Shown piece by piece: positions 23,507-47,158 of a stretch of 64,000 nt of DNA. Below the pieces are notes generated by a model. The model ran no database searches. It worked only from the letters and a program-made list of their open reading frames with translations, and was not told the origin of the DNA. Location of the stretch: assembly GCA_963759805.1 (NCBI GenBank), contig CAVXAT010000008.1, positions 64,001 through 128,000 of the forward strand, in the 5' to 3' direction. Both the position numbers and the translations under genes were made by a program. The stretch is from an uncultured bacterium. GTDB taxonomy: Bacteria; Babelota; Babeliae; Babelales; RVW-14. Numbering within the stretch: position 1 is the first letter of the stretch; every line of letters starts with the position of its first letter.

Positions 23507-24420
23507 ATGCAGGTATCCACAAGGTCTACAAGATTTCATTTTAATTTTTTAAAGTATAGTAAAATTTGGATTGGCGTATCGATTGCCTATTTGGCCATTG
23601 GAATAGTAGCCTTCATCGTCATGGGAGGCTTTAAATATCACATTGATTTTACAGGTGGTGCTGAAATTCAAGTCTCTTTTGAAAAGCCAATTGATACGGC
23701 AACCGTCAGAAGTGTTGTAGCAAAGGCCGGTTGGAACCAAGCTATCATCCAGGAAATCGGTAGTACAAAAAAAGAGTTTTTAATTAAACTGGGCGGAGCA
23801 TTAGAAACAGGACTAGAAGACAAAGTTAAGTCTACCATCACAACAAACATACCTGAAAATAAACTTCGAGGTTAGAAATGTTGAATGGGTGGGGGCAGAG
23901 GTTAGCTCAGATACCACTTGGAACGCAATTTTAGGCCGTAGCATTATCTGTTCTTATTCTTTTACTTTATATGGCCTTTCGCTTTGAGTTTGCATTTGGA
24001 GTGGGTGCGGTGGTAGCACTTCTTCACGATTTACTGTTTGTTTTAGCCTTTATTTTAATCACAGGACAGCAGATATCGTTAAATGTTTTGGCAGCTGTTC
24101 TGGTAGTTCTTGGATATTCAGTTAATGACACTATTGTTATTTTCAGTAGAATGCGTGAAAATTTGAAAAAGATGCCCGAAGTTTCTGAATATGAAGTTGC
24201 AAATTTGAGCATTAATCAGACGTTAACCAGAACTATTTTGACAAGCTTTGCCACGATTTTATCTGTCTTGGCTATTCTATTTCTGGGTGGCACAACGTTG
24301 CATGATTTGTCTTTGATAATGTTTATAGGAATCGTTGTTGGAACATACTCTTCGATTTACATTGCCAGCCCCGTTATGTTGTTTATCAGATCATACAAAA
24401 AATCGAATCTCCCTAGCTAA
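23507..24420 (+). CDS. secF: Protein translocase subunit SecF, split by two +1 frameshifts (~23862, ~23934)
   Basis: IDFTGG in the first piece; intervening frame reads FEVRNVEWVGAEVS; last piece has FRFE, ALLHD, LGYSVNDTIVIF.R.REN, QTLTRT and GTYSSIYIASP. Confidence 0.9.
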
Positions 24421-28084: not shown

Positions 28085-31000
28085 CTAATAACTTGGATTG
28101 TAATAGATATAACCTAAATTATCTAACCATGCACCTGACAGTAATTGAACATTCATGTCGCCGCCAACCAATCCATTGCCCAATTCGAATGAGGTTGCTT
28201 GAGTCGTGTTTCCATTAACCGTTACTTTGTTATTAAAGTAAACTGATCCATTTATTAACTGCCAGCCGCTGTCCGGTAACTGTACCGTACACTGATCAAA
28301 GTAAATTCCGGATGTCTGATCTGCCATCTTAATTAAATTACGCTCTGATAAAGTATGACGTCTGGTTAAGCCCGGGCTGTAACTGAACGTAGTGTTTTTA
28401 TCAAAATACAGTGTTGAATGCAATGCTATGTAAGATGTTCCTGTTGAGGCATAACTGAATTGATTTGTGCCTGTCACAAAAACATCATCCTGAACAAACA
28501 GTTGACCTTGTGTGAATGCATAGTCTATGTCAAAACTTGTGCTCATATTTTGCAATGTAAGTTTGCATGTTTCATCCCGCATCTCAATCGGAGTTGACCC
28601 GGCTGCCAGCAAGTTAAGATTTCTTAGCGTTAAAGTTACACCGGTGTCTACTACCAGCCTGGCTCCAGATGCAAATGAAAGATCATTATTCTGACCATCG
28701 AGCACGCCACCTGAAACAACTGTGATTGCAATATTTGTCGGCAAAGTTAAATCTCCGCCAAAAATCATTGCGTTTCCCTGCAAATCAAAATTACCCGACG
28801 ATACAACTGTTGTTTGACTTGCAAGAGTCATGTCGCTGCCCAATGTAAGTGTTCCACCTTGCAGATCAATTGGACCTGATGACATACTTTCGCCCTTCAC
28901 ATTTGTTGAACCGGTAATTGCACCAAGCACCGTAAGTGTTCCGTTATTAACAGATATGAAGTGATCACGCTCAAAATTGATCGCATTGCTGTTATCGTAA
29001 ACGAGCTCACCCGGAGCTTGATCGTAAGTTACAATATTATTGCCTGAGGAGTAAGTTTGCAGATTATAATCTCCAAGTCCTGCACCGGTGATATTTTTAA
29101 TAAGCGAACGATCTTGCCAACCAATAACAGTGTTAGGTGTCATACGAATCTTAGAATTGCTATTTGCAAGTACAAATCGCGCATCATCGTTGCTAAACAT
29201 TGTATAACCAAGAGTGTTATCGTAATTCATCAGCCCGCTGATAGAAACATTTGCACCGGATAACAACTTAACATTAAGATCCTCCGACAATCCTAAAGAA
29301 GAATTACCTAAGATAATAGAGCTGGAGAAAGGCTGTTGTTGACTATCTGCCCCCCAATTTACAGCATATGCTTTTAATACGTAATTTGGATAGCCGGGAC
29401 TTTGATCAATACATAAGACATATTTGCCATCAGGACTTAAGGCCGCTTTTGAACCAGGCAGCCCGCTGCCGCTAGTTCCAACCTCTTCTAATCCGCCAGA
29501 AGGCCCAACCCCTGTTACTTTATAAACTTTAGTAAGATTTGCAAAGGCCCAACCAACAACAACATAACGTCCATCAGGAGTCCAGCCGGCAGGTTCTAAT
29601 AATTCGCCAGTAAATATAGGCATATATCCGGTACCAAGCTCAGCAAACCCACCAGCATTCCCACCTCCTGTAAAGTTGTAAACCTTAAGAGCCGATAATG
29701 CATGCATAAGAACTTTCTTGCCATCAGGGCTCCATTGCGCTCCAGAGGTATCAAAAGTAGATTGGATAAATGCAGTAAATCCCGAACCAATTTCAGCAAG
29801 TCCACCATTTAAAGAAAGACCAGTAAATTTGAATGCCTTTAAATCCGTTTGGCTATGATCATTAGGATCTATAAATGCTACTGCTATGCTTGTACCATCA
29901 CAACTCCACGATACAAAACCAACATTAGCATTTAAACCTAAATTTACATTACCAGCAAAATCATCTTCAAAGCCACCGCTGTTGCCTGCACAGATAAATC
30001 TGAACGTTTTGACTTTGTATGATCCATCACTATTATCTGCAACACCAACAACAACATATTGAGAATCTGGACTCCAATCAATTGATGTGATCGCGCTCAA
30101 GTAGTTAATCATTCCACTGGCAACTTCCTGTAATCCACCTTGATTACCAGAACCAATAAATTTATAAGCTTTGATAACACCGGTAGAACCGGAAAGGCCA
30201 ACACCAATAACCGCCATGTACCTTCCATCCGGACTCCATTTTATTTGTGAAATAGAACTCAACGGATAAGCCATTTGACCTGATCCAATAACTGAAAGTC
30301 CACCCGTTCCAGAAGTAGCCGTAAAGCGATACGTCTGTAATCCGGAGCCTGTGTTAACAACGGCATATCTGCCATCCGCACTCCATGCAGCATATAAGAA
30401 AGCTCCGATCTGTCCTCCGGTAAATACATCAGATAATCCACCTGTTGTTGAGTTTGGACTAACAATACTTGCAATCTGGCTTGAAACCGAAACTTCATTG
30501 TCAAAAATTAACTGGCCTTTTGTTAATCTAAATCCTGTCTGAGTGGTTTGAAGCGTACAGCCATTCAGATATATTTTTGATGTCGCATCATCTAAAGTCA
30601 AAAGAGAGCTTCCAGCAAGCCCAATTGCCCCTGTTGTACATGGTTGATAATCAAAGATAGTTCCAGGGTTGAATATCAACGACCCGCCCGACATGATATA
30701 ACTTTGCGCCGCAGAGCTGTAAACAAATGAACTGGAACCGGTTACATTCATATCATTGTAAACATACATCTGTCCGCGATTTAACCAGAAATTATCTGCA
30801 AGATCAAAATTTACACTATCAAGAACTAGCTTGCTTGACAAAGAAGCTAATTGTATCGATTGATCTGCAGATCCATTGGAGGTATTTCTAAATATCAAAT
30901 TTCTCAGAGTTAAGGTAGCACCGGTGTCAACCATAATCTTAGAATCGTTTCCTAATGTCAGAGAATTACCATTGCCTTCAATGGTAGTATCATTGCCAAT

Positions 31001-33805
31001 ATGCAAGATGTTCCCATCCGGAATCGAAAAATCACCATTTAGATGAAGAGCTTTTCCATTGCCAAGAATATGACCAAAGCCAAATGAACTGGAAAGCGTT
31101 GTTCCCGAATCCATAAACAGATCATTGCTCAACGTCAAAGTTCCTGCAAGAGAAATTTGACCTGACACTTCAAGAGGAGTTCTTAGAGCAAAGGTTATAT
31201 CTGGGTAAATTGCAAAACCATTTTTATACCAAGCGAGAGCATCAATGGTGGTGTTAGTAGAATAAATTTGTTGAGTACCAAATATCTGAATATTGGTCGC
31301 AAGTTTAACAATGGCATTGCTATTGTTTATAACACGCTTATTAAGATAAACCGCTGCATTGCTGGTCTGTTTAATCCAGGAAACAATCGCATTACTGTTG
31401 TGAATTGAGAGTTCACCGGTTATCTGGTTTAAGTATATGATAGCGTTACTATTGTTTCTGATGCCAAAGAGTAATGCGTTGCTGTTGTTCTTAATTCCAT
31501 ACAATAATGCATTACTGTCGGTTCTTACTCTTGTACTCAAGTAATTTGCTGCATTGCTTGTTACTCTGAGCAAGTTACTGTTTCCTCGCTCCACACCGCT
31601 GAGCCATGCTATTGAGTTACTTGTCATTCTACTCAAATAAGCTATTGAATTACTACTCGTCCTACTTAAATATGCTATCGAGTTGCTACTCATTCTGCTT
31701 AAATATGCTTCTGAATTACTTGTCGTTCTTCGTAAATAAACTAATGCATTGCTTGTTACTCTGAGCAAGTTACTGTTACCTCGTTCGACTCCACTCAGCC
31801 ATGCTATTGAGTTACTTGTCATTCTACTCAAATAAGCTATTGAATTACTACTCGTCCTACTTAAATATGCAATAGAGTTGCTGCTCATTCTGCTTAGATA
31901 TGCCATGGAATTGCTTGTTGTTCTGTTTAGATAAACTAATGCATTGCTTGTTACTCTGAGCAAGTTACTGTTTCCTCGCTCCACACCGCTGAGCCATGCT
32001 ATTGAGTTACTTGTCATTCTACTCAGATAAGCTATTGAATTACTACTCGTCCTACTCAAATATGCAATAGAGTTACTGCTCATTCTGCTTAAATATGCTT
32101 CTGAATTACTGGTCGTCCTTCGCAAATAAACTAATCCATTACTCGTTACTCTGAGCAAGTTGCTATTCCCTCGCTCCACACCACTGAGCCATGCTATTGA
32201 GTTACTTGTCATTCTACTCAGATAAGCTATTGAATTACTACTCGTCCTACTCAGATATGCAATCGAGTTGCTGCTCATTCTGCTCAGATATGCCATGGAA
32301 TTGCTTGTTGTTCTGTTCAGGTAAGCTAACCCGTTGCTTGTTACCCTGAGCAGGTTACTGTTCCCACGCTCTATTCCATAAAGCCATGCTATTGAGTTAC
32401 TTGTCGTTCTGTTCAAATAAGTTAATGCATTACTCGTTACCCTCAAGAAGTTACTGTTTCCTCTAATAACCGGCGCCCAGTAGTTCATTGAGTTACTTGT
32501 TTGTCTTGCCCATGACATAAGTGCATTGCTGTCAGTTCTTACTCTCATACTCAAATAGTTTGCCGCATTACTTGTTACTCTGAGCAAGTTACTGTTCCCT
32601 CGCTCCACACCGCTGAGCCATGCTATTGAGTTACTTGTCATTCTACTCAGATAAGCTATTGAATTACTTGTCGTTCTACTCAAATATGCAATAGAGTTAC
32701 TGCTCATTCTGCTTAAATATGCTTCTGAATTACTGGTCGTCCTTCGCAAATAAACTAATCCATTACTCGTTACTCTGAGCAAGTTACTGTTCCCTCGCTC
32801 CACGCCACTTAGCCATGCTATCGAATTACTTGTCATTCTACTCAGATAAGCTATTGAATTACTACTCGTCCTACTCAGATATGCTATCGAGTTGCTACTC
32901 ATTCTGCTTAAATATGCTTCTGAATTACTGGTAGTTCTTCTCAGATAAACTAATGCATTACTTGTTACTCTGAGAAAGTTACTGTTCCCTCGCTCCACGC
33001 CACTTAGCCATGCTATCGAGTTACTTGTCATTCTACTCAGATAAGCTATTGAATTACTACTCGTCCTACTTAAATATGCTATCGAGTTGCTGCTCATTCT
33101 GCTTAAATATGCCATCGAATTACTTGTTGTTCTGTTTAGATAAACTAATGCATTACTTGTTATTCTGAGAAAGTTACTGTTCCCTCGCTCCACGCCACTT
33201 AGCCATGCTATCGAATTACTTGTCATTCTACTCAGATAAGCTATTGAATTACTACTCGTCCTACTTAAATATGCTATCGAGTTGCTGCTCATTCTGCTTA
33301 AATATGCCATCGAATTACTTGTTGTTCTGTTTAGATAAACTAATGCATTACTTGTTATTCTGAGAAAGTTACTGTTCCCTCGCTCCACGCCACTTAGCCA
33401 TGCTATCGAATTACTTGTCATTCTACTCAGATAAGCTATTGAATTACTACTCGTCCTACTCAGATATGCAATAGAGTTGCTGCTCATTCTGCTTAGATAT
33501 GCTTCTGAATTGCTGGTAGTTCTTCTCAGATAAACTAATGCATTACTATTTGTTCTTGCAGTTACCGTCAGTCCCACTACTGCATTACTGTTATCATAAA
33601 CAAGTTCGGCAGGAGCCGCTGCATAATTCACAATATTATTATTTAGAGTAGGCGCATATGAAACCAGGTTGTAATCTCCAAGCCCACCTCCAACTGTATT
33701 CTTGATAAGGGATCTATCATTCCATCCAACAACAGTGTTTGGGGTCATGCGAATTTCAGAAGCACTATTTTTTAGAACAAAGCTTGCATTATTATTACTG
33801 AACAT
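28085..33805 (-). CDS. Giant modular protein, C-terminal piece: connector, long SN-repeat stalk, carrier with 7-blade propeller, terminal carrier without propeller
   Basis: 1906-aa ORF; seven W(S/T)PDG-type blades; carrier motifs; the reading frame continues upstream of its ATG (LLSGANVSVDGILNYDNTLGYT-MFSNNN). Confidence 0.85.
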   Translation of the reverse strand: MFSNNNASFVLKNSASEIRMTPNTVVGWNDRSLIKNTVGGGLGDYNLVSYAPTLNNNIVNYAAAPAELVYDNSNAVVGLTVTARTNSNALVYLRRTTSNSEAYLSRMSSNSIAYLSRTSSNSIAYLSRMTSNSIAWLSGVERGNSNFLRITSNALVYLNRTTSNSMAYLSRMSSNSIAYLSRTSSNSIAYLSRMTSNSIAWLSGVERGNSNFLRITSNALVYLNRTTSNSMAYLSRMSSNSIAYLSRTSSNSIAYLSRMTSNSIAWLSGVERGNSNFLRVTSNALVYLRRTTSNSEAYLSRMSSNSIAYLSRTSSNSIAYLSRMTSNSIAWLSGVERGNSNLLRVTSNGLVYLRRTTSNSEAYLSRMSSNSIAYLSRTTSNSIAYLSRMTSNSIAWLSGVERGNSNLLRVTSNAANYLSMRVRTDSNALMSWARQTSNSMNYWAPVIRGNSNFLRVTSNALTYLNRTTSNSIAWLYGIERGNSNLLRVTSNGLAYLNRTTSNSMAYLSRMSSNSIAYLSRTSSNSIAYLSRMTSNSIAWLSGVERGNSNLLRVTSNGLVYLRRTTSNSEAYLSRMSSNSIAYLSRTSSNSIAYLSRMTSNSIAWLSGVERGNSNLLRVTSNALVYLNRTTSNSMAYLSRMSSNSIAYLSRTSSNSIAYLSRMTSNSIAWLSGVERGNSNLLRVTSNALVYLRRTTSNSEAYLSRMSSNSIAYLSRTSSNSIAYLSRMTSNSIAWLSGVERGNSNLLRVTSNAANYLSTRVRTDSNALLYGIKNNSNALLFGIRNNSNAIIYLNQITGELSIHNSNAIVSWIKQTSNAAVYLNKRVINNSNAIVKLATNIQIFGTQQIYSTNTTIDALAWYKNGFAIYPDITFALRTPLEVSGQISLAGTLTLSNDLFMDSGTTLSSSFGFGHILGNGKALHLNGDFSIPDGNILHIGNDTTIEGNGNSLTLGNDSKIMVDTGATLTLRNLIFRNTSNGSADQSIQLASLSSKLVLDSVNFDLADNFWLNRGQMYVYNDMNVTGSSSFVYSSAAQSYIMSGGSLIFNPGTIFDYQPCTTGAIGLAGSSLLTLDDATSKIYLNGCTLQTTQTGFRLTKGQLIFDNEVSVSSQIASIVSPNSTTGGLSDVFTGGQIGAFLYAAWSADGRYAVVNTGSGLQTYRFTATSGTGGLSVIGSGQMAYPLSSISQIKWSPDGRYMAVIGVGLSGSTGVIKAYKFIGSGNQGGLQEVASGMINYLSAITSIDWSPDSQYVVVGVADNSDGSYKVKTFRFICAGNSGGFEDDFAGNVNLGLNANVGFVSWSCDGTSIAVAFIDPNDHSQTDLKAFKFTGLSLNGGLAEIGSGFTAFIQSTFDTSGAQWSPDGKKVLMHALSALKVYNFTGGGNAGGFAELGTGYMPIFTGELLEPAGWTPDGRYVVVGWAFANLTKVYKVTGVGPSGGLEEVGTSGSGLPGSKAALSPDGKYVLCIDQSPGYPNYVLKAYAVNWGADSQQQPFSSSIILGNSSLGLSEDLNVKLLSGANVSISGLMNYDNTLGYTMFSNDDARFVLANSNSKIRMTPNTVIGWQDRSLIKNITGAGLGDYNLQTYSSGNNIVTYDQAPGELVYDNSNAINFERDHFISVNNGTLTVLGAITGSTNVKGESMSSGPIDLQGGTLTLGSDMTLASQTTVVSSGNFDLQGNAMIFGGDLTLPTNIAITVVSGGVLDGQNNDLSFASGARLVVDTGVTLTLRNLNLLAAGSTPIEMRDETCKLTLQNMSTSFDIDYAFTQGQLFVQDDVFVTGTNQFSYASTGTSYIALHSTLYFDKNTTFSYSPGLTRRHTLSERNLIKMADQTSGIYFDQCTVQLPDSGWQLINGSVYFNNKVTVNGNTTQATSFELGNGLVGGDMNVQLLSGAWLDNLGYIYYNPSY
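31310..33590 (-). repeat. Intragenic tandem repeat: 195-bp (65-aa) super-repeat of 11/11/11/11/14/7-aa SN units
   Basis: tccctcgctccacgccactt at 33181 and 33376 (period 195); SNALVYLNRTT SNSMAYLSRMS SNSIAYLSRTS SNSIAYLSRMT SNSIAWLSGVERGN SNLLRVT. Confidence 0.92.
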
Positions 33806-36757
33806 TGTGTAACCAAGGGTGTTGTCGTAGTTTAGAATTCCATCAACTGAAACGTTTGCACCGGAAAGTAATTTACATTAAGATCGCTTGTTTGACCTGC
33901 TGCTGAGTTACCAAATACGATTGAGTTGGACGGAACTTGGGCTGCCGTTTGAGGCCTAAATCCGGTTGGGTATACCTGCATTACTCTAGAATCTCCACAA
34001 GATGCAACATATTTTAAATCAGGAGACACGGCTAAACACCTCAGATCCATGTGAAGACTGATCAGATTGATTAATCGCAGCCCCACCGGTAAACGCATTA
34101 TAAATCAAAACCCTGCGCGTAGTACACCACCACATGCCATTACAAATTTTCCACTTGTATCCCAAGCAACAGAATAAACAATGATCCGCTATACGTAGAT
34201 ATTGCCGGCGTAATTGGATCCAATGAGGTTAAATTTTTAAAATAAAATACTTTTGCCGCACTAGTCGCAGTTCCAAATCCAGCTACAACATACATGCCAT
34301 CAGGACTCCAAGCAATTGAATATGCTATACCATTATATGATGGCGATTGAGCTATAGGTGATCCACTATTATCAAATCCAGTACCATTAAAGCTATAGAT
34401 GTTTATAGGAAGTGGTGGTGAAGCTCCACCAGCTGCACCGGCTGCAATATACTTTCCATTGGGACTCCAAGAAACTGAGTATATTGTTGCAGTATAACTA
34501 GCAGATGCAGCAAGATAATTACAACTACTACCGGTAAATCCATAAACTTGAACAGTTTGCGTTGTTACTCCTCCTGCTGCAATATATTTTCCATCAGGAC
34601 TCCATGCTACTGATTCTATTGTTCCACTATAGGATGGCGATTGAGCAATAGGTGAGCCACCATTATCAAACCCAGTGCCATTAAAACTATAGATGTTTAT
34701 TTTCTGAGTAGCTCCACCTGCAGCAATATATTTCCCATCAGGACTCCATGCTACTGATTGTATTATTCCACTGTAATTAGCAGATTCAGCAACAAGATTT
34801 AATGTCGATCCTGTAAAACTGTACACCTGAATCGTTTGCTTGCCTGATCCTCCAATAGCCACAAACCTTCCATCGGGACTCCAGACAGTGGCATAAATTA
34901 GTCCGGTGTAGCTTGGAGTCGACGTTGCAGTTGTAAGGAAACTATAAAGATCAAAAGATGCTGCGCTGGTCATAGAAACACTGTTATCTAATAATATTTG
35001 TCCTTTGGTCAGGCGCATTCCTGTAAATGTTGATTTAAGTGTTGCACCATTCAATGTAATTTTTGAGCTTGCATCATCCATCCCCAACAGATCTTTGGCT
35101 AACAAACCTGATGTACCTGTCGTAGATGGCCTGAAATCAAACGTAGTGCTTGGATTAAATTTAAAGTTGGCGCCTGACTTTATATAACTTGGCATAGTTG
35201 ATCTGTAAATAAATGCATTTGTGCCATTGATATTAACATCGTTGTATGCAAACAACTTGCCGCGATCAAAATAAAAATCATTTGCCGGAATCAGAGTTGC
35301 ATTGTCCAGCACAAGCTGACTGCGGTTTGATGCCAACTTTATTGCAGGATTACCAGGGCCATTCAAAGTACTATCAACAACAACGTTACGCAATGTCAAC
35401 GTTATTGTGTCATCTACAAAGATTTCAGAATTGGCACCAATACTTATTGTGTTACCGTTACCATCAAGCACTGCATTGTTACTAACGTGAACGATTGTAT
35501 TTGCAGGGATATTCCAGTTCGAACCAACCAAAGTATTCGGCACGCCGGAATAATTTATTAGGTTAGTTGGAATTTGGGCATTTTTTGGACTCACATCGGA
35601 GATTAAATTGTAGTCACCCAAACCGGCGTTTGAGACGTTAGAAATTATAGAACCATCTTGCCATCCAACAACAGTGTTTGGGGTCATGCGAATTTCAGAG
35701 TTGCTGTTTTTTAATACAAAGCTTGCATTGTTATTACTGAACATTGTGTAACCAAGGGTGTTGTCGTAATTTAGAATTCCATCGACTGATACGTTTGCCC
35801 CCGAAAGTAGTTGAACGCTTAAATCTGATGCTGATCCGGCAGCCGAATTGCCAAAGACAATTGAGCTGGACAGAGCTTGAGTCGATCTATCTACAACATA
35901 ATTAGTACTAAATATTTGTAGTGTACCGCTATTGTAAGTGACAAGAGCAATAAAGCGCCCATCCGGTGACCAGGACACTGAACGTGGATTACCGCTAGCA
36001 CTTGCACTGCTGCCAACCAATGTTGGGTTCCCCGACCCACTAAAGCTACATATTTGCAGTGAACTGGTGTAATCAGCAACAGCAAGATAGCGACCATCCG
36101 GTGACCAGGACACTGAATATGGTTGAGTTCCAGGATTTACACTGCCCACCAATGCTGGATTAAGACCATAGAAGCTAAATATTTGCAGAGAGTATGGAAT
36201 ACTGCCAAAACAAACAGCAATAAAGCGGCCATCCGGTGACCAGGATACTGCTTGTGGTCCAGTAGTAATAACCACACTGCCAACCAATGTCGGATTGCCG
36301 GATCCACTAAAGCTAAATATTTGCAACGTAAGGCCGGCGTTATTAACAACAGCAAGATAGCGACCATCTGGAGACCAAGATACTGAATATGGCGTAGATC
36401 CTGTACTTGCGCTACCAACCAATGCTGGGTTGCCTGATCCACTGAAGCTAAATATTTGCAGCGAAGTTGAAGAACCAACAACGGCAATAAACCGACCATC
36501 CGAGGACCATGACACTGACCTTGGGCCGCTCGTACTTACACTGCCAACAGGACTGGCGGAAGGTATGCCTCCATTGACGCTAAATATTTGCAATGTGCTA
36601 CTAGTGAAAATACCAACAGCAATAAAACGACCATCCGATGACCAGGATACCGATATTGGACCATTTCCAGTACTTACGCTACCAACCAATGTTGGATACC
36701 CCGAACCACTGAAATTAAATATTTGCAGCGAATTACCATTAAAATTAACAACCGCTG
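33806..36757 (-). CDS. Giant modular protein, middle piece (ORFs 34140-36689 and 33832-34098): propeller, connector, carrier, propeller; frameshifted at ~34080-34190 and ~33873
   Basis: Repetitive SVSWSPDGRFIAV blades, QALSSSIVFGNS closing motif, carrier domain and a second propeller whose last two blades (WDTSGKF, VSPDLKY) lie in shifted frames. Confidence 0.8.
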
Positions 36758-39700
36758 ACAGTTGCTAGCGTTGACGTCGTTGTTCCGGAGAATAGATACA
36801 CGGATAAGCTACTTGGTTGCACTAGTAACTTTTCCCTTGTTTGACCCGCTACTGCCAACTTTCTCCCGTCAGGGCTCCACTGTAACTTGTCAATTTCTCT
36901 GAATGCATTTGCAATACCGGTCCCAAGCGTAAGAATCGCACTTGTGCCCGTTGCCCTGAACGATGTTGCACTAGTCATAGTCACATTGTTACTAAGAAGC
37001 AACTGTCCATTGGTCAAACGCATGCCAGTTAGTGTTGTTTTCAATGATGCTCCGTCCAATGTCAACTTAGATGTCGCATCGCCCATCATTAAAAGATCTT
37101 TTGCCAAAAGGCCTGTCACACCGCTTGTAGCAGGTTCAAAGTAGAAGGTAGTCTTTGGATTAAATTTAAGATTTGCGCCCGACATAATTTGACTTGGAAC
37201 AGTTGAACGGTAAATAAATGAACTTGTTCCCGTAAAGTTAACATCGTTGTAACAAAACAGTTCTCCCTGATTGAAGTAAAAATCATTTACAAAGTTCAAT
37301 CTTGCATTATCAAGAACAAGTTTGCTTCTGCTTGTCGCAAGCTCTATCGGCGGATTATTTGCAAAGTTTTGATTATTACTGATTACAACGTTTCTCAAAG
37401 TCAAAGTCACATTGTCATCAACAAAAATTTGCGAATTGTTGCCAATATTTACCGTATTCCCATCACCCTCAATTATCGTGTTGGCACCAATGTGCATTAA
37501 GTTATTACTTGGAATTGCAAGATTTCCGCCCAAATGGATTGCATTGCCATTTCCATAAATCTCCCCAAATCCATAGCTGCTTGTGAACGTTGCTCCGGCC
37601 TCAAGGAACAGATCACTGCTCAATGTCAATGTGCCCCCAAGCGATATCTGCCCATTTACCGGAATTGGAGTATTCAATGCCAAAATTACACCCGGATCAA
37701 CTTGAAATCCGGCCTTGTACCAGGCAAAGTTTTGAATCGTTGCAGGATGATTATAAACTTGTTGTGTGTTAAATACTTGGACATTGTTTGAGAGATTAAT
37801 GATTGCATTGCTGCTGTTCTTGATTCCGTACAAAAACGCGTTACTGTCAGTTCTTACTCTCGTGCTCAAATAATTTGCTGCATTACTTGTTACCCTGAGC
37901 AAGTTACTGTTCCCTCGCTCCATTCCATAAAGCCATGCTATCGAGTTGCTTGTCGTTCTGTTCAGATAAATTAATGCATTGCTATTGATTCTCGTTGTTA
38001 CCGTCAGCCCCACTACCGCGTTACTGTTATCATAAACAAGCTCAGTTGGCGCCTTGGCATAGCTAACTATCTTATTAGCACCTTCATAATTTACAAGATT
38101 ATAATCACCCAAACCCTGACCGGTAGTTGTTTTGGTTAATGATCTATCACGCCAGCCAAGAACTGTGTTTGGACTCATGCGAATTTCGGAATTATTTTGA
38201 AGAATATTATTGCTGGCTTTGAGCGTAAAACACGCATTATTATTGCTAAAGATCGTATAACCCAAAGTGTTGTCGTAATTAAGTATTCCATCTACCGATA
38301 CGTTTGCACCGGAAAGTAGTTGAAGATTTAAATCATAACTTGAACCTAAAGCAGAATTACCAAACACAATTGAATTAGAGATAGCCTGAGAATTATATGC
38401 CTCTTGGCCGTATGCTACCTGCGCTAACTGAAGTTCTTGTTGCGTGCTACCTGTGACAGGCAATAATCCAGCCACAGAACCTCCAACTGCTAGATATAGA
38501 CCGTTAGGATTCAGGTCACAAGCATAAAGTGCAGTTCCATAAGAAATCTTTTTTAGAGGAACTAACGAAGATCCTGTAAATGCCATGTACAAAGTCAAAT
38601 CGCTTGAGGAACTGTCATTGCCACCCACCAGTATAAATCTTCCATCAGGGCTCCATTTTACAACTCTTGCGTTTACACCAAACGGTGCAGTTGCAACTGC
38701 ACCAAGCGTAGGTGATGCTGGATTGGCACCATTAAATGAATAAATCGTTATATCCTTAGCTGTCGCCCCAGACCCATTTTGTCCTGTTGCTGCCAAGAAA
38801 TTTCCATCAGGACTCCATGCAACGTTTGTTGCAAAAGATGCGTAACTTCTTGTTAATGACGTTGCGATCAATGCCCCGTTCCCGTTATTAAAAGAATAAA
38901 TGGCTATACTGTTGGTTGAAGAGTTTGTGGCAATCGCAATATATTTTCCACTTGGATGCCAAGAGATTCCTAGAACCTCTGAAACCCCTGAAGTTGCTGA
39001 AACTTGATTCAAAGTAGTTCCGTTGAACTGATATATCGTCAGATTTCGCATGTTGCCGCCAACTGCCAAGTAGTGCCCATCAGGACTCCAGCTTACCGGA
39101 CCTGTGTATGATGCCCTAGTCGTTCCAAGATTTGTCTGCGCAACTGTCGAAAGGGTATTATTCACAATGGAGTAAACTTGTAGGTTCGAGGTTGATACTG
39201 TTAACGATAATGGTAGGTTTACTTTTCCACCCGCCGCTATATACTGCCCATCAGGACTCCATGAAACACCTGATGACGTTACCGAAAAGGCAGTCGCTGC
39301 CAACGTTGTTGTTGTTGATCCGGAAAAGAGGTATACTGCCACGTTATTTGCTTGCGCTAGTAATTTTTCCCTCGTTTGACCCGCAACTGCCAACATTCTT
39401 CCATCAGGACTCCACTGTAATGTATCAACTTCCCTGAATGCTCTTCCTATATAATTAGGAGTGGTACCTGATTGAATTTGATATGCATAACTTGTCCCTG
39501 TAATCTGCAGTGATGCCGCACTTGTCATCGTAACTTTATTACCAAGCAGTAACTGTCCTTTGGTCAGACGCATTCCTGTCAGTGTTGTTTTAAGTGATGC
39601 TCCATCCAATGTCAACTTTGATGTCGCATCGCCCATTACAAATAAATCTTTTGCCAAAATTCCCGATGCACTCGTAGTAGACGGCGCGAAGGCAAATGTC

Positions 39701-40407
39701 GTTCCCGGATTAAATTTAAGATTTGCACCTGACATTATATAACTTGGGCTTGCAGAGCGATAAATAATTGCACTTGTACCTGTAACGTTAACATCGTTGT
39801 ATGCAAACATTTGTCCACGATCAAAGTAGAAATCATTGGATAAATTTAATCTCGCATTATCAAAAACAATCTTGCTTCTGCTCGTTGCAAGTTTTATTGG
39901 CGGATTACCTGCAAAATTTTCGGTATTATCAATTACAACGTTGCGCAATGTAAGAGTTACAGTGTCATCAATAAAAATTTGAGAATTGTTGCCGAGATTG
40001 ATCGTGTTATTATTGCCATCCAATACAGCATTTGCAGTGACGTGAATTACAGTGTTGGCAGGGATGTTCCAGTTCGAACCTATCAAAGTGTTCGGCACTC
40101 CGGGATAGTTTATGATGTTCCCTGAACTTGGATATGTTGAGTTGCCTATGTTTTTGGCATCCAACAGCAGATTATAATCACCCAAGCCGGCGTTGGAGGC
40201 GTTGGCAATTATCGAATCACTTTGCCAGCCTGAAATTGTAGTCGGCGTAAACCTTATTTGCGAATTGCTGTTTTTGAGAACAAATCTCGTAGACTCCATA
40301 TCCAATTGAAGACTGGCAAATACAAACGGATCCTGAATCAAGTTCAGGATGACAAAATAGGAGGATAGAATACGTGCTAACCAAAACCATTTACTCTGAA
40401 ACTTCAT
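36745..40407 (-). CDS. Giant modular protein, N-terminal piece: signal peptide, carrier with 7-blade propeller, connector, short stalk, second carrier, first blade of next propeller
   Basis: MKFQSKWFWLARILSSYFV.. preceded by a purine-rich RBS; seven WSPDG-type blades; ends abruptly after one blade. Confidence 0.85.
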   Translation of the reverse strand: MKFQSKWFWLARILSSYFVILNLIQDPFVFASLQLDMESTRFVLKNSNSQIRFTPTTISGWQSDSIIANASNAGLGDYNLLLDAKNIGNSTYPSSGNIINYPGVPNTLIGSNWNIPANTVIHVTANAVLDGNNNTINLGNNSQIFIDDTVTLTLRNVVIDNTENFAGNPPIKLATSRSKIVFDNARLNLSNDFYFDRGQMFAYNDVNVTGTSAIIYRSASPSYIMSGANLKFNPGTTFAFAPSTTSASGILAKDLFVMGDATSKLTLDGASLKTTLTGMRLTKGQLLLGNKVTMTSAASLQITGTSYAYQIQSGTTPNYIGRAFREVDTLQWSPDGRMLAVAGQTREKLLAQANNVAVYLFSGSTTTTLAATAFSVTSSGVSWSPDGQYIAAGGKVNLPLSLTVSTSNLQVYSIVNNTLSTVAQTNLGTTRASYTGPVSWSPDGHYLAVGGNMRNLTIYQFNGTTLNQVSATSGVSEVLGISWHPSGKYIAIATNSSTNSIAIYSFNNGNGALIATSLTRSYASFATNVAWSPDGNFLAATGQNGSGATAKDITIYSFNGANPASPTLGAVATAPFGVNARVVKWSPDGRFILVGGNDSSSSDLTLYMAFTGSSLVPLKKISYGTALYACDLNPNGLYLAVGGSVAGLLPVTGSTQQELQLAQVAYGQEAYNSQAISNSIVFGNSALGSSYDLNLQLLSGANVSVDGILNYDNTLGYTIFSNNNACFTLKASNNILQNNSEIRMSPNTVLGWRDRSLTKTTTGQGLGDYNLVNYEGANKIVSYAKAPTELVYDNSNAVVGLTVTTRINSNALIYLNRTTSNSIAWLYGMERGNSNLLRVTSNAANYLSTRVRTDSNAFLYGIKNSSNAIINLSNNVQVFNTQQVYNHPATIQNFAWYKAGFQVDPGVILALNTPIPVNGQISLGGTLTLSSDLFLEAGATFTSSYGFGEIYGNGNAIHLGGNLAIPSNNLMHIGANTIIEGDGNTVNIGNNSQIFVDDNVTLTLRNVVISNNQNFANNPPIELATSRSKLVLDNARLNFVNDFYFNQGELFCYNDVNFTGTSSFIYRSTVPSQIMSGANLKFNPKTTFYFEPATSGVTGLLAKDLLMMGDATSKLTLDGASLKTTLTGMRLTNGQLLLSNNVTMTSATSFRATGTSAILTLGTGIANAFREIDKLQWSPDGRKLAVAGQTREKLLVQPSSLSVYLFSGTTTSTLATVSGC
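40328..40353. repeat. REP hairpin inside the signal-peptide coding region
   Basis: ggatcctgaatcaagttcaggatgac, same family as the intergenic hairpins at ~15451, 27907 and 50973; encodes VILNLIQDP. Confidence 0.75.
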
Positions 40408-40470
40408 AAAACTCTCTCTTTCCATTTTTTTGTTTTTTATAACTTATCCTTCGTAATTTTGTTTAGCATC

Positions 40471-40555: not shown

Positions 40556-42647
40556 CTAACTTACACAATCGTAATTCACCATACCATCTACGGTCATCTG
40601 TGCACCGGACAACCCACGTACGCTCAAATCATAACCTGACCCCAACGCCGAGTTGCCAAAAACAATCGAGTTGGACAGGGCTTGAGTTTGTGTCTCATAG
40701 CTCCAGTGTAATGCCTGTATCTGCACCTCCTCAAATGATGGTGAATTGGCAGCATTACCGGCAATAGCCAAAAAATTGTTATCAGGACTGAATGCAATAC
40801 CACGAGCATAACTATTAGTAAGTTTAAATGTGCCAACTTGTGAAAGCGTGTTCCCCACAAGTTGAAAAACAATAGCGTTAAAATTCGCTGTTGTTGCATC
40901 TTGTCCGCAAAATGCAACGTAACGCCCGGTTTTATCCCAGGAAGCGGTGTAGCCCGAAGCGCCTGTTGTGCCTGTATAAGAAGCAACACGCACTAATGCG
41001 CTACCGGTAAAGTAATGAACCCAGAACATAGGGGCTGCATCTGTAGATGCTGCAGTTGCCAAAAATCTTCCATCCGGGCTCCAAACAATATCAGCAGCAC
41101 CAGTAAGAGTGTAACTATTCAATAAAATCAAAGAATTTCCCGTAAATTTGTATATTGCAAGCGCAGTAGATGAACCTACAGCAATGGTTTGCCCATCAGG
41201 ATTCCAAGATGCACCATAGCTAGTGCTTCCCAAATTTACTGATGCAACCACACTCCCAAGAGAGGTTCCTGTAAATGCGTAAACATTTAATTGATGTAAG
41301 CCCAAATTAGAAGCAACAGCAAGATAGCGTCCATCCGGGCTCCAACGAGCGGTCCAAGATTCAACAGGACCCGCTAAAGAAGCTACATGACGTAAGAGTT
41401 GTTCCATTAAAAGAATAAACTCTTACAAAAACCGTCCCACCGGAATCCTGTCCGGCACAGGCTAAATATCTTCCATCCGGACTCCAACTAGCCCCAAGAC
41501 AAAAATTTGACCAAGCAGTTTGAGTAATAGGGGTAAAGGATGTCCCATTAAACCCTAGAACTACAAATCTGATAGAACCTGCAGGCCCACTATCAACACC
41601 AAAAGCTATGTACTTTCCCGAAGGGTGCCAATCAACGCAAGCAGCTCTTGGCGTTGCCTGCCAGTTAGTGACAGTAGTAGAAAAGTCGACAAGCCGAAAT
41701 GCTGCGGCGCTTGTCATTGATACTTTATTATCAAACAACAATTGCCCCCGGGTTAAACGAAATCCCGTATATGTTGATTTAAGGGTGCAACCGTTTAAAT
41801 AAAGTTGGCTTGTTGGGTCAGCCATATATAATAAATCTTTTGCCAAAAGTGAAGGAGTTCCGGTTGTGCTAGGGTAAAAATCAAGCGTTGTTCCAACATC
41901 AAAGTACAGTTTTGCCCCTGAAGTTATAAAGCTTGGCTGGCATGAACTGTAAAAGAATGCTGACGTACCGGTTACAGCAACATCATTATGAACAAACATG
42001 CTGCCTTGATTAAAATAAAAATCATTGGGAAGATCAAGCTCAGCATTATCCAAACAAAGTTGGCTTCGGGAAGATGCACACTGGATGGCAGGACTCCCCG
42101 GACTGTTCAACGTCCCTTGCACAATTATATTTTTCAAAGTCAGCGTTGCACCGATATCAACAAAAAGCTGTGATCTGCCCCCAAGAATTAATTTATGCCC
42201 TTGTCCATTAAATGCAACTCTTCCCCCGACGTGAATTGTATTGCCTGCCGGAATTGTTAGATCACCTTTTAAAATTACGGCTCTATCATAACCGTACAAT
42301 CTTCCCCCCGAAGAGAACGTAACTCCATTATCCAAAGTTAAATCCGAAAGAAGAATTATAGTATTTGTGTTACGTAAATCGATTGCGCCGGAGACGGAGA
42401 TGCATGTGTCCATGTAAACAGAAGATCCATGCGCCGCAGCTGGCACAAGAGTAAACCCATTTGTCATTCTGACAAATCCAATGGCACTCTGTTGATCCCT
42501 AAAGTTATTTTGTGTTGTTGTGTACAAGATCCCGGCACGGCCAAGCAGGCTGCCTGCAAACATGTTAGAAAAATATAGTGCTGCAAGAAACACGCACTCT
42601 ATTAAAAAAAGTAATCTCAGATTTTTCTGTACTAATCTCATTTCCAT
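40556..42647 (-). CDS. Single-module carrier/7-blade beta-propeller protein, paralog 3 (+1 frameshift at ~41390)
   Basis: ORFs 41361-42647 and 40556-41407 align end to end with the intact paralog 45059-47158. Confidence 0.85.
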
Positions 42648-42785
42648 CTCTCTTTTTTAGATCTCCAACTTCTCGAACTGGGCCTGTCCGTCGTAGCCAC
42701 GAGTGCATACACCTACGCTCTACGTAGCTACGGTGCACAAGACGAGGGCGAAGTCGGAATCTGTCAGCATTAATTTATAAGCCGG
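42568..42785. repeat. Direct repeat copy 1 (gene 5' end plus intergenic nested REP)
   Basis: Near-identical to 44822-45042; contains tccgtcgtagcc..cacctacgctctacgtagctacggtg..ggcgaagtcgga. Confidence 0.85.
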
Positions 42786-42801
42786 CCATTTTTATGCAAA
42801 C

Positions 42802-44901
42802 CTAACTTACACAGTCGTAATTCACTAAACCGTCTACAGCCATCTGCGCCCCTGATAATCCGCGGACATTCAAATCATAACTTGACCCCAACGCCGAGTT
42901 GCCAAAAACAATCGAGTTGGACAGAGCTTGAGTTTGTGTCTCATAACTCCAGTGCAATGCCTGTATCTGCACCTCCTCAAATGATGGTGAATTGGCAGCA
43001 TTACCGGCAATAGCCAAAAAATTGTTATCAGGACTGAATGCAATGCCACGAGCATAAGTTGAAGTAAAGTAAAATGTGCCAATTGGTGAAAGCGTGTTTC
43101 CCACAAGTTGAAAAACAACAGCATTATATGTAGGCGTTGTTTGATCTTGTCCTCCAAATGCCACGTAACGGCCGGTTTTATCCCAGGAAGCGGTGTAGCC
43201 CGAAGCGCCTGTTGTGCCTGTATAAGAAGCAACACGCACTAATGCGCTACCGGTAAAGTAATGAACCCAGAACATATGGATGTATTTTAGAGCAGCAGTT
43301 GCCAGAAATCTTCCATCCGGACTCCAAACAGTATCGGCAGCACCAGAAATAGTATAATTACTATGCAATTGAATCAACGACGTCCCCGTAAATTTGTATA
43401 TTCCGAGCACATTGCTATTATTAACAGCTACAGCAATAGTTTGCCCATCAGGATTCCATGAAACTCCCTGGGCAGCAAATGAGAAACTTTGGGACCCAAT
43501 AAGAACAAGAGTATTTCCGGTAAATGCATAAACAGTTAATGGGTTTGCGCTCAAATTAGAACCAACAACAAGATAACGTCCATCAGGACTCCAACGAGCG
43601 GTATATGCCATGGGGCCGAGGGTACCCGATATAGTAGCTACCTGCGTAAGAGTTGTTCCGTTAAAAGAATAAACTCTTACATAGGTATTTGATGTATCCT
43701 GCCCGGCACAGGCTAAATATCTTCCATCCGGGCTCCAATTAACCCCATAAGCATAAGCTTGCCATGATGGCAGTTTGAGTGATAGGGGTAAATGATGTTC
43801 CATTAAACCCTAGAACTACAAATCTAGGGCTGAACGCAGCCCAGCTTGAACACCAAAGGCAACATACTTTCCCGAAGGATGCCAATCAACGCAGGTAGCC
43901 ATTGTTGTTGCTTGCCAGTTAGTGACAGTAGTAGAAAAGTCGGCAAGTCGAAGGGCTGCGGCGCTTGTCATTGATACTTTATTATCAAACAACAATTGTC
44001 CCTGGGTTAAACGAAATCCGGTATAAGTGGATTTAAGGGTGCAACCGTTTAAATAAAGTTGACTTGTCGGATCAGCCATAAACAATAAATCTTTTGCCAA
44101 AAGCGAAGGGGTTCCGGTTGTGCTAGGATAAAAATCAAGTGTTGTTCCAACATCAAAGTACAGCTTTGCCCCTGAAGTTATAAAACTTGGCTGGCATGAA
44201 CTATAAAAGAATGCTGACGTGCCGGTTACAGCAACATCGTTATGAACAAACATGCTGCCTTGATTAAAATAAAAATCGTTGGGAAGCGCAAGCTCAACAT
44301 TATCCAAACAAAGTTGGCTTTTAGAAGATGCACACTGGATGGCAGGACTCCCCGGACTGTTCAATGTACCTTGCACAATTAGATTTTTCAGCGTCAGCGT
44401 AGCACCGGTATCAACAAAAAGCTGCGATCTGCCGCCCAGGATTAATTTATGCCCTTGTCCATCAATAACTATTCTATCGCCTATGTGAATAACCGTGCTC
44501 GCAGGGATTGTTAAGTCTCCATTTAAAATCAAAGCTCTGTCGTAACCATAAATAGCTCCACTGGAGGAGAATGTAACTCCATTATCCAGAATTAGGTCTG
44601 ATTGAAGAAAGATCTCGTTACCATTACGTAAATCAATCGGCCCGGAGACGGTAGTGCATAAATCCATATAAGCAATCGAAGCGCTTGAGTTCGGGACAAC
44701 AGTAAAGCCATTAGTCATTCTGACAAAACCTCTGGCATAGTCCGTGTTACGAAAAACGTAGTTGAAAGGCTGGTATGCAAAATAGCCCGGCGATCCGCCA
44801 AGACTCGCTGCAGATAAAGTTGAAAAATATAGTGCTGCAAAAAACACGTACTCTATTAAAAAAAGTAATCTCAGATTTTTCCGTACTAATCTCATTTCCA
44901 T
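42802..44901 (-). CDS. Single-module carrier/7-blade beta-propeller protein, paralog 2 (compensating frameshifts at ~43840 and ~43768)
   Basis: ORFs 43816-44901 and 42802-43803 are in the same frame; the segment between them reads RFVVLGFNGTSFTPITQTA in a shifted frame, as in the paralogs. Confidence 0.85.
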
Positions 44902-45042
44902 CTCTCTTTTTCTCAGATCTCCAACTTCTCGGAGCTGGGCCTGTCCGTCGTAGCCACGAGTGCATACACCTACGCTCTACGTAGCTACGGTGCACAAGAC
45001 GAGGGCGAAGTCGGAATCTGTCAGCATTAATTTATAAGCCGG
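44822..45042. repeat. Direct repeat copy 2 (gene 5' end plus intergenic nested REP)
   Basis: Near-identical to 42568-42785. Confidence 0.85.
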
Positions 45043-45058
45043 ATATATTCCTACAAAC

Positions 45059-47158
45059 TTAACTTACACAATCGTAATTCACCATACCGTCTACGGTCAT
45101 CTGTGCACATGACAATCCGCGCACATACAAATCATAACTTGCACCCAAGGCTGAGTTGCCAAAAACTATTGAGTTGGACAGAGCTTGAGTTTGTGTCTCA
45201 TAACTCCAGTGCAATGCCTGTATCTGCACCTCCTCAAATGATGGTGAATTGGCAGCGCTACCGGCAATAGCCAGAAAATTGTTATCTGGGCTAAATGCAA
45301 TGCCACGAGCAGAAGTTGAGCTAAAGTAAAATGTACCAATTGGTAAAAGAGTGTTCCCCACAAGTTGAAAAACAACAGCGTTATATGTCGGAGTTGATTG
45401 ATCTTGCCCACTAAACGCCACATAGCGGCCAGTTTTATCCCAGGCACAAGCAGTGCCAGACCCAGTAGACGAAAGATTATAAGTAGCAACACGCACTAAT
45501 GCGCTACCGGTAAAATAATGAATCCAGCCAATAACTGCTGGTGAAGATACTACAGTAGTTGCTAAAAATCTTCCATCAGGACTCCAAGCCATATCATTAA
45601 ATTGAGAGGCGCCGAAATTGGTGTAACTATTCAATAAAACCAAAGACTTTCCCGTAAATTTGTATATTGCAAGCGTACCCCCATTATTACCTACAGCAAT
45701 GGTTTGTCCATCAGGATTCCAACATGAGCCAAAGGAAGTTCCTAATACATTCGCTGATGTAACAAAAATAAGAGAAACTCCTGTAAATGCATAAATAGCT
45801 AATTGATTTGAGCTCACATTATTAGAAACCGCAAGATAACGACCATCAGGGCTCCAACGAGCGGTCCAGGCCTCACCAGTTGATAGAGAAGCTACCTGCG
45901 TAAGAGTTGCTCCGTTAAAAGAATAAACCCTTACATCAATTAACGATGAATCCTGTCCGGCACAGGCTAAATATCTTCCATCCGGGCTCCAACTAGCCCC
46001 AAGGCAATCGTTTGACCAGGTCGCAGTTTGAGTAATAGGGGTAAATGACGTCCCATTAAACCCTAGAACTACAAATCTGATAGAGCCGGCAGGCCCACTA
46101 TCAACACCAAATGCAACATATTTTCCCGAAGGATGCCAATCGACACAAGCAGCTCTTGCTGACGCCTGCCAGTTAGTGACAGTAGTAGAAAAGTCGGCAA
46201 GTCGAAACGCTGCGGCGCTTGTCATTGATACTTTATTATCAAACAACAATAATCCCTGAGTTAAACGAAATCCGGTATATGTTGATTTAAGGGTACAACC
46301 GTTCAAATAAAGCTGACTTGTCGGATCGGACATAAACAATAAATCTTTTGCCAAAAGTGAAGGCGTTCCGGTTGTGCTAGGGTAAAAATCAAGCGTTGTT
46401 CCAACATCAAAGTACAACTTTGCCCCTGAAGTTATAAAACTTGGCTGGCATGAACTATAAAAGAATGCTGACGTGCCGGTTACAGCAACATCGTTATGAA
46501 CAAACATGCTGCCTTGATTAAAATAAAAATCGTTGGGAAGCGCAAGCTCAACATTATCCAAACAAAGTTGGCTTTTAGAAGATGCACACTGGATGGCAGG
46601 ACTCCCCGGACTGTTCAATGTACCTTGCACAATTAGATTTTTCAGCGTCAGCGTAGCACCGGTATCAACAAAAAGCTGCGATCTGCCGCCCAGGATTAAT
46701 TTATGCCCTTGTCCATCAATAACTATTCTATCGCCTATGTGAATAACCGTGCTCGCAGGGATTGTTAAGTCTCCATTTAAAATCAAAGCTCTGTCGTAAC
46801 CATAAATATTTCCACTGGAGGAGAATGTAACTCCATTATCCAGAATTAGGTCTGATTGAAGAAAGATCTCGTTACCATTACGTAAATCAATCGGCCCGGA
46901 GACGGTAGTGCATAAATCCATATAAACAGTCGAGGCATTTACGGCCGATAGAACCGTAAATCCATTAGTCATTCTGACAAAACCTCTGGCATAGTCCGTG
47001 TTACGAAAAACGTAGTTGAAAAGCTGATATTTCGCCGTACTTGTCCCATCTAGAGACGTCGAATGAAGACTGACCAAAACCAAAAATTGGGTGAAAAATA
47101 TATGTATGAAAAAAATGCGTGTTGCCCAATTTAAAATCAATCTCATTATTCTCCTCAA
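45059..47158 (-). CDS. Single-module carrier/7-blade beta-propeller protein, paralog 1 (intact)
   Basis: 699 aa; hydrophobic N-terminal signal; carrier domain; blades WHPSGKY, WSPDGRY x2, WNPDGQT, WSPDGRF, WDKTGRY, FSPDNNF; closing QALSNSIVFGNS..NYDCVS. Confidence 0.88.
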   Translation of the reverse strand: MRRIMRLILNWATRIFFIHIFFTQFLVLVSLHSTSLDGTSTAKYQLFNYVFRNTDYARGFVRMTNGFTVLSAVNASTVYMDLCTTVSGPIDLRNGNEIFLQSDLILDNGVTFSSSGNIYGYDRALILNGDLTIPASTVIHIGDRIVIDGQGHKLILGGRSQLFVDTGATLTLKNLIVQGTLNSPGSPAIQCASSKSQLCLDNVELALPNDFYFNQGSMFVHNDVAVTGTSAFFYSSCQPSFITSGAKLYFDVGTTLDFYPSTTGTPSLLAKDLLFMSDPTSQLYLNGCTLKSTYTGFRLTQGLLLFDNKVSMTSAAAFRLADFSTTVTNWQASARAACVDWHPSGKYVAFGVDSGPAGSIRFVVLGFNGTSFTPITQTATWSNDCLGASWSPDGRYLACAGQDSSLIDVRVYSFNGATLTQVASLSTGEAWTARWSPDGRYLAVSNNVSSNQLAIYAFTGVSLIFVTSANVLGTSFGSCWNPDGQTIAVGNNGGTLAIYKFTGKSLVLLNSYTNFGASQFNDMAWSPDGRFLATTVVSSPAVIGWIHYFTGSALVRVATYNLSSTGSGTACAWDKTGRYVAFSGQDQSTPTYNAVVFQLVGNTLLPIGTFYFSSTSARGIAFSPDNNFLAIAGSAANSPSFEEVQIQALHWSYETQTQALSNSIVFGNSALGASYDLYVRGLSCAQMTVDGMVNYDCVS

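Follow-up and report, generated by a model that had tools for sequence, protein, structure and literature searches.

The HNWD/NWD genes of Podospora anserina, het-d and het-e among them, encode, according to the available sections of PMC1805685, cytoplasmic NACHT proteins with a role in recognition. Their WD40 propellers consist of near-identical repeats under demonstrated positive selection, exchange DNA among loci in concerted evolution, and have their variable top-face codons in the d-a loop and the b-c turn, paired around a conserved position. A bacterial locus resembling this system is described here. It lies at positions 40556-47158 of a 64,000-nucleotide window (positions 64,001 to 128,000 of contig CAVXAT010000008.1, assembly GCA_963759805.1, an uncultured member of the Babelales) and is filled by three minus-strand tandem paralogs of about 700 codons each, named A, B and C, with a predicted propeller inserted in a predicted beta-helix carrier. 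Close paralogs outside the window are D (contig C1, intact) and E (contig C4, one frame break), giving five copies on three contigs. As in HNWD, propeller DNA is exchanged among loci in concerted evolution and the variable top-face codons are paired around a conserved position; a recognition role would also be shared. It is moderately probable, and the best of the readings considered, that these genes form a likely secreted host-binding repertoire, in which block-exchanging paralogs differ mainly in the predicted top-face loops of the propeller and would have different specificities.

The family works like the HNWD repertoire but is not a member of it: no Pfam match to a NACHT or HET domain was found in A, the blades of one gene are divergent, and a ratio of nonsynonymous to synonymous change (dN/dS, omega) above 1 is not established. 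Unlike in HNWD, exchange runs in register between paralogs, the loops vary in length, and the propeller comes with a beta-helix and a signal-like helix. Systems of antigenic variation that work by segmental conversion, such as Borrelia vls, Anaplasma msp2 and Neisseria pilS, likewise join a conserved framework to variable exposed loops through the exchange of blocks among copies. In contrast to those systems, no truncated donor cassettes were found here, each copy has its own signal-like N-terminus, and the known hosts of the Babeliales lineage are protists, which are without antibodies.

The closest solved propeller, 2ymu, is one of the bacterial WD40 proteins called WRAPs, for which the available sections of PMC9218822 report amplification from single blades, rapid turnover, frameshifted copies and a tie to STAND immunity. 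In A-E, unlike in WRAPs, the blades fall short of near-identity, but the giant genes of the family (see the last section) include some repetitive modules. The eukaryote-like repeat proteins of Dependentiae, such as the ankyrin expansions treated in the available parts of PMC4776705 and PMC6561590, are also expanded, signal-bearing families of interaction domains with a proposed action on the host; in those parts no beta-helix with an inserted propeller was found, nor its arrays, mosaicism or variation of the top face. A predicted parallel beta-helix behind a signal-like N-terminus is shared with beta-helical adhesins, the passengers of autotransporter and two-partner systems (Vag8, EtpA, TibA, PfbA). 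Unlike in autotransporters, a C-terminal beta-barrel is absent from A (Pfam, model), and the propeller is inserted in the solenoid.

Paralogs A, B and C and their predicted architecture

The elements of the array are as follows.

45059..47158, minus strand: paralog A, intact, 699 aa, with N-terminal helix, beta-helix carrier, inserted seven-blade propeller and C-terminal beta tail (list of open reading frames (ORFs) and AlphaFold)
47060..47158, minus strand: A codons 1-33, likely Sec signal peptide, a basic N-region followed by a hydrophobic helix (model helix 2-30)
46208..47059, minus strand: A codons 34-317, predicted parallel beta-helix carrier (AlphaFold model, structure search)
45200..46186, minus strand: A codons 325-653, WD40-type propeller of seven blades (predicted), variable in its d-a and b-c loops (model and alignment)
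45062..45199, minus strand: A codons 654-699, conserved beta-strand tail beyond the propeller (model secondary structure and family consensus)
44902..45058, no strand assigned: intergenic segment between A and B, with 93% identity to the one between B and C
42802..44901, minus strand: paralog B, in two ORFs, the frame breaking near 43838 (-1) and again near 43765 (+1)
42648..42801, no strand assigned: B/C intergenic segment, counterpart of the A/B segment
40556..42647, minus strand: paralog C, two overlapping ORFs, frame break near 41387 (+1)

The sequence-only reading had proposed three tandem paralogs; the three genes are present and A is intact, but B and C are not intact ORFs. Frameshift-aware alignment places the breaks of B at codons ~356 (-1) and ~380 (+1), with a stop codon between them, and that of C at codon ~421 (+1). 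With every break read as unknown, zero further stops occur in either gene.

The AlphaFold model of A was built with 89 sequences and reached a predicted local distance difference test (pLDDT) of 91.7 and a predicted template modelling score (pTM) of 0.90. It is all beta beyond the helix at residues 2-30: a beta-solenoid leads into seven blades of four strands each (~325-653), and a beta tail that would complete the carrier follows. In structure searches the propeller matches WD40 folds, the best match being 2ymu_B (Z 40.2, root-mean-square deviation (rmsd) 1.8, 286 residues aligned). Pfam WD40 (PF00400) scores 51.4 bits over the whole protein against a curated cut-off of 27, single stretches each staying below the cut-off, and the GH and WD dipeptides generally regarded as canonical were not seen by eye at the repeat ends of the alignment. 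Modelled alone, the carrier gave a pLDDT of 93.5, with a best match among parallel beta-helices (Z 15.4, rmsd 5.1, 263 aligned); a Foldseek search with the carrier returned zero matches at E<=0.001, and the best ESM Atlas feature score, 0.84, is treated as a lead only. A basic and hydrophobic N-terminus was present in 75/89 family members by a simple hydropathy rule, which is not a signal-peptide predictor. Judged by the blade topology of the model, the stalk is predicted to join the propeller where strands c and d lie, which would leave the top face directed away from it.

Top-face variation and block exchange

The sequence-only reading held that differences, length changes included, are concentrated in two places of each blade. 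The framework and loop peptides that it quoted are present in the translations, and the concentration is borne out. The top face is defined here by the d-a and b-c loops, a convention found in the available sections of PMC1805685; blade elements were taken from the AlphaFold model, and the borders between element classes are offsets from blade anchors set by us. Among A-C, 80/129 columns of the top loops are variable, as opposed to 35/200 propeller columns elsewhere (Fisher p=1.5e-16), 14/60 in the c-d loops and outer strand d (p=8e-7 against top) and 3/53 in the bottom loops. The variation is therefore not spread evenly over the two faces. Of the propeller gap openings, 23/30 fall within top loops. 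With D and E included, the top count rises to 89/129, compared with 43/200 in the rest of the propeller and 17/60 in the exposed c-d loops and strand d (p=3e-7 against top). The variation is uneven among blades: blades 3-5 vary at nearly every top column, while the b-c loop of blade 7 is mostly fixed (4/15 columns variable). A count by blade-anchor offset, free of loop alignment, gives the same picture: offsets -8, -7 and -6 vary in 7/7 blades and -4 in 6/7, whereas -3 varies in 1/7 and 0 to +4 in 0/7. Aromatics make up 14/35 residues at -4 and 7/35 at -6, offsets which we take to match WD40 top-face hot spots.

Relaxed constraint might produce such a distribution by itself, if exposed top loops drifted near neutrally (omega about 1, tolerant of indels) on a scaffold that is purified and homogenised by conversion, the proteins being structural or sharing one ligand. 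We consider this possible, though on the whole unlikely. It agrees with the mostly small size of the variable top residues (Ser 18%, Thr 14%, Ala 11%, Gly 9%), with family-wide entropy that tracks variability in A-E (Spearman 0.45), and with the codon models of the next section, of which the best-fitting ones have no class with omega>1. It is at odds with the behaviour of tolerant columns, taken as those whose entropy over 88 homologs exceeds 3 bits: 60/76 of those on top vary in A-E, whereas equally tolerant non-top columns do so less than half as often (9/26, p=7e-5). General tolerance is thus not the full explanation of the top bias, with the reservation that loop misalignment may inflate top-loop entropy. 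The lower variability of the exposed c-d loops and strand d, and the aromatic exchanges at offsets -4 and -6, also argue against relaxed constraint alone. At short distance the generality of the top-face bias rests on one cluster, A-E; the five-paralog cluster of genome G023, the giant-gene modules and the G002/G003 pair were viewed as alignments, and module extraction for the replicate sets caught 38 modules and missed others.

The carriers, previously described as nearly identical, are so in A and B (99% over codons 76-255), while C differs from both (72-73% over codons 76-165, 45-49% over codons 34-75). The N-terminal end of the beta-helix holds a second variable region (A codons 34-80, window about 46920-47059), and at least three types of it are common to several contigs: A/B/G-like, C/D and E/F. 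This region might set assembly partners or form a second binding site.

By their sequences, A-E are clearly gene-conversion mosaics that trade blade-sized and carrier-sized blocks, and this is the best-supported diversifying process at the locus. Two of the blocks have been delimited in the window.

46400..46933, minus strand: A-B gene-conversion tract, 538 bp, A codons 76-253, with agreement at 52 consecutive silent polymorphic sites
43174..43276 (approximate), minus strand: ~103 bp of B (A codons 543-576, across the d-a loop between blades 5 and 6), common to C and to D on contig C1; A and E carry other versions

The A-B tract has a permutation p=2e-4, the floor of 5000 shuffles. Over 211 informative sites, adjacent sites share one split 86 times, compared with 33.5 in shuffles (p=2e-4), and the nearest-neighbour relationships among the five close copies switch along the gene. 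D resembles A over blades 1-4 (91-93%, codons ~334-487) and C over blades 5-7 (99%, codons ~541-643), its tail resembles those of its neighbours F and G, and A and E have in common a loop version at codons 514-573 (16 informative sites). Codons 76-165 of A and B are 86-87% identical to G, though the G propeller is only 42-43% alike, and this stretch is best read as derived from a G-like source. In genome G023 (loci L028 and L029), five close paralogs of 65-94% identity in two arrays also look mosaic by eye, with blade blocks apparently exchanged.

In the repertoire reading, a beta-helix stalk would be exported via Sec and displayed at the surface or at the host side, and the propeller top face on the stalk would bind a protist host ligand. 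Conversion would keep the scaffold alike across copies, the top faces would be kept different by selection that favours distinct specificities in loops under loose constraint, and block exchange would yield new loop combinations. A more specific form of this scheme is rather doubtful, namely that of a recombining surface-propeller library on a beta-helix stalk, a bacterial HNWD counterpart, in which protist host range would depend on the top loops, and multi-base patches and the conversion of blade blocks would rewrite these loops.

Selection tests and search for a dedicated diversifier

Rates were pooled over A-E by the Nei-Gojobori method (NG86), with a bootstrap interval on the ratio. The top loops have a dN of 0.325 and a dS of 0.405, hence a dN/dS of 0.80 (bootstrap 0.60-1.07), compared with 0.24 in the non-top propeller and 0.08 in the mid-carrier, so that loop dN/dS is higher than that of the framework. 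The bottom loops have a dN/dS of 0.07 at a dS of 0.46; top dN is about 10-fold bottom-loop dN while dS is similar. At the sequence level, purifying selection on the carrier middle, the blade cores and the bottom loops is shown, as is a clustering of amino-acid change, small indels and multi-base replacements in the d-a and b-c loops.

Codon models were run with scripts written by us, not with PAML or HyPhy, on one tree despite recombination, and five sequences give limited power. Standard site models yield twice the log-likelihood difference (2dL) of 17.2 for M1a-M2a and 16.7 for M8a-M8, with a small class of omega about 6. All sites with posterior >0.5 are on top in the best tree (12/12), as are at least 14 of 16 on a star tree; the same models give no signal of positive selection in the non-top propeller and mid-carrier. 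These figures would suit a fast arms race, with recurrent positive selection on point mutations at few top codons in response to host receptor change or defence. Quick successive selected steps can also resemble multi-base change, a further point in its favour. We nevertheless regard the arms race as improbable. Two multi-nucleotide parameters gain 109 units of 2dL, and once double and triple nucleotide changes are allowed the M1a-M2a signal is 0.04; many flagged sites adjoin gaps. In simulations with a true omega of about 6, the corrected test keeps 8-45 and the multi-base gain is <=13 in 7/7 runs, in contrast to the 109 observed. Simulations of multi-base change without positive selection give 6-26 by the standard test in 10/10 runs, and with amino-acid exchange rates alone the M2a signal persists (20.2). 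On balance the simulations favour multi-base change as the source of the signal. This multi-nucleotide artefact has been described for M2a and M8 (PMC6332903).

Several results weigh against the repertoire reading, the collapse of the M1a-M2a signal just described among them: (i) the same statistic drops to 9.6, then 5.7, when columns near gaps are masked, and is 3.1 once site-rate variation is modelled; (ii) in invariant four-fold columns the counts are 10/21 on top and 30/80 elsewhere (p=0.46), silent divergence being not clearly higher on top, and a column-level test of silent change in and beside changed codons is not significant (19/41 versus 21/60, p=0.30); (iii) top loops are the most variable class family-wide too; (iv) the N-terminal third of the carrier is also highly variable; (v) the five-paralog cluster of G023 differs, by eye, in whole blocks of blades 3-5, strands included; (vi) the carrier match is generic, with Z 15.4-11.9 over 50 rows in which adhesin passengers, lyases and tailspikes are tied; and (vii) 3/5 close copies are frameshifted in this assembly. 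Because of the tie with lyases and tailspikes, the carrier fold reveals no function.

Positive selection as called by standard M2a and M8 is unproven, since the call weakens under gap masking and is lost under multi-hit models and rate variation. The best-fitting models are M1a with multi-base change and contain no class of omega>1; top-loop omega ranges over 0.73-0.80. Loop evolution is therefore near-neutral or faster, with replacements in clusters; an omega >1 is not established. Of the diversifying selection on one binding surface proposed earlier, the top-biased change and the raised dN/dS stand, whereas dN/dS >1 does not hold under multi-hit and rate-variation models; the phrase "antibody-like arms race" overstates the data. 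The case also calls for caution with the standard site test, which finds positive selection here and fails under multi-hit models.

Where conversion acts, a peak of divergence has been described as a sign of selection between duplicates (PMC3924837, available sections). The peak at silent sites that long shielding from conversion should leave is weak here, because top silent divergence is not clearly raised, although pairwise counts show silent change raised in and beside changed codons. Local hypermutation of the loops is not supported: top dS is like bottom-loop dS and the silent column tests are not significant.

A dedicated diversifier, either a diversity-generating retroelement (DGR) or a set of silent donor cassettes, could also rewrite the loops. 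The strong excess of multi-base replacements and a lower transition bias in the loops would fit, and the frameshifted copies could be donors, or errors. Its expected marks are missing, so that both models are set aside as far as the 89%-complete assembly allows, and this is the least probable of the explanations considered. Adenine bias is absent (variable fraction 0.52-0.53 for all four bases), and neither a DGR-type reverse transcriptase nor a DGR template repeat was found in the genome at this completeness. Loop-private 14-mers recur elsewhere 13/864 times, against 14.3+/-4.2 expected, which indicates no donor, and no silent donor cassettes with loop variants were found outside the paralogs. 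The sole RVT_1 match is a 598-aa reverse transcriptase ORF (L061, 1039-2835) on contig C20 (4.8 kb), which by eye resembles the eukaryotic long interspersed elements (LINE) without long terminal repeats (non-LTR) and is either contamination or host-derived DNA.

Assembly quality and distribution of the family

The genome comprises 1.50 Mb in 21 contigs and is 89% complete. The background of frame changes was measured with 279 ORFs from 400 kb of the genus-mate G003, 184 of which have orthologs here. From the raw count of 9/184, one paralog overlap, also seen in the reciprocal test, and a pgsA-pgpA fusion were excluded; frame changes thus remain in 7/184 conserved genes, GyrA and ATP synthase delta included. 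Seven stop-only rows, probably shadow frames, were left out of the count. In the reciprocal test the figure was 1/203, namely the excluded overlap. SecF is likewise split by frame breaks, at window 23507-24420 on the plus strand. Since these conserved genes are broken, the assembly carries indel errors, and its split genes call for caution.

Family genes A-G contain 5 breaks in ~14.6 kb, compared with a background of ~1/26 kb, a density roughly ninefold above that measured, the background count being one that compensated pairs escape. Breaks between adjacent blade pairs number 1/169 in relatives and 3/75 in this genome. Assembly errors in hard-to-polish repeats are the likely cause, though the broken copies may truly be decaying. 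A wider artefact, in which mis-polished or chimeric repeats also create some mosaic tracts or multi-base differences, would draw on these same break counts, and we hold it to be very unlikely: the loop indels are in frame, the intact genes A and D show the same pattern, the mosaics link different contigs, and relatives hold intact tandem arrays of similar divergence.

The genome contains 27 carrier matches on five contigs. F and G, on contig C1, bear a different propeller type, and the giant genes of the family string several carrier and propeller modules in series. One of these adjoins the array downstream.

28085..40425, minus strand: giant family gene in four ORF pieces, with several carrier and propeller modules

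Its intact counterpart, of 3901 aa, lies on contig C1 at 236447-248149. Near position 36765 the giant gene of the window has an out-of-frame junction leading from the first blade of one module type into the interior of another, a deletion or a misassembly. At about 30900-33600 (minus strand) a long Ser/Asn-rich tandem peptide repeat separates carrier modules, as in the giant gene of contig C1; it is possibly a stalk that extends the protein.

Family matches were obtained in 24/24 genomes of the same family, many with tandem arrays, and in 9/16 other genomes of the same order, where the weaker ones may be propeller-only. Where homologs carry a lineage name, it is Babeliales, Dependentiae or TM6; the lineage is one of parasites of protists (PMC4776705, PMC6561590, available sections), and its true host range is still to be defined according to PMC12172432. 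No full-length homolog above 48% identity, own copies aside, was present among the matches listed (best 120 of 192), and a metagenome scan for close alleles gave no confirmed relative. Literature searches returned no description of the propeller/beta-helix family. WD40 proteins of TM6 receive a single passing mention in the available text of PMC4776705; by term searches, WD40 is not mentioned in the main texts of PMC6561590 and PMC12172432, nor for the Babeliales lineage in that of PMC9218822. The family is lineage-wide and apparently undescribed so far, with real, well-localised variation. Its size, its occurrence in all same-family genomes searched, its likely secretion and the concentration of nearly all change on one face make it a source of candidate host-specificity determinants, and the stable scaffold with loops of variable length might be used as a natural library of binders.

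Minor observations concern sequences around the arrays. The duplicated intergenic segment contains a GC-rich repeat core, present also on contigs C1, C10 and C14, and an inverted-repeat search showed nothing notable. On C14 the core occurs three times with a spacing of 149 bp. Two genes upstream of the family's array on contig C4, a 616-aa ORF (87358-89205, minus strand) is autotransporter-barrel-like by eye and is a possible candidate for an export partner of the family.

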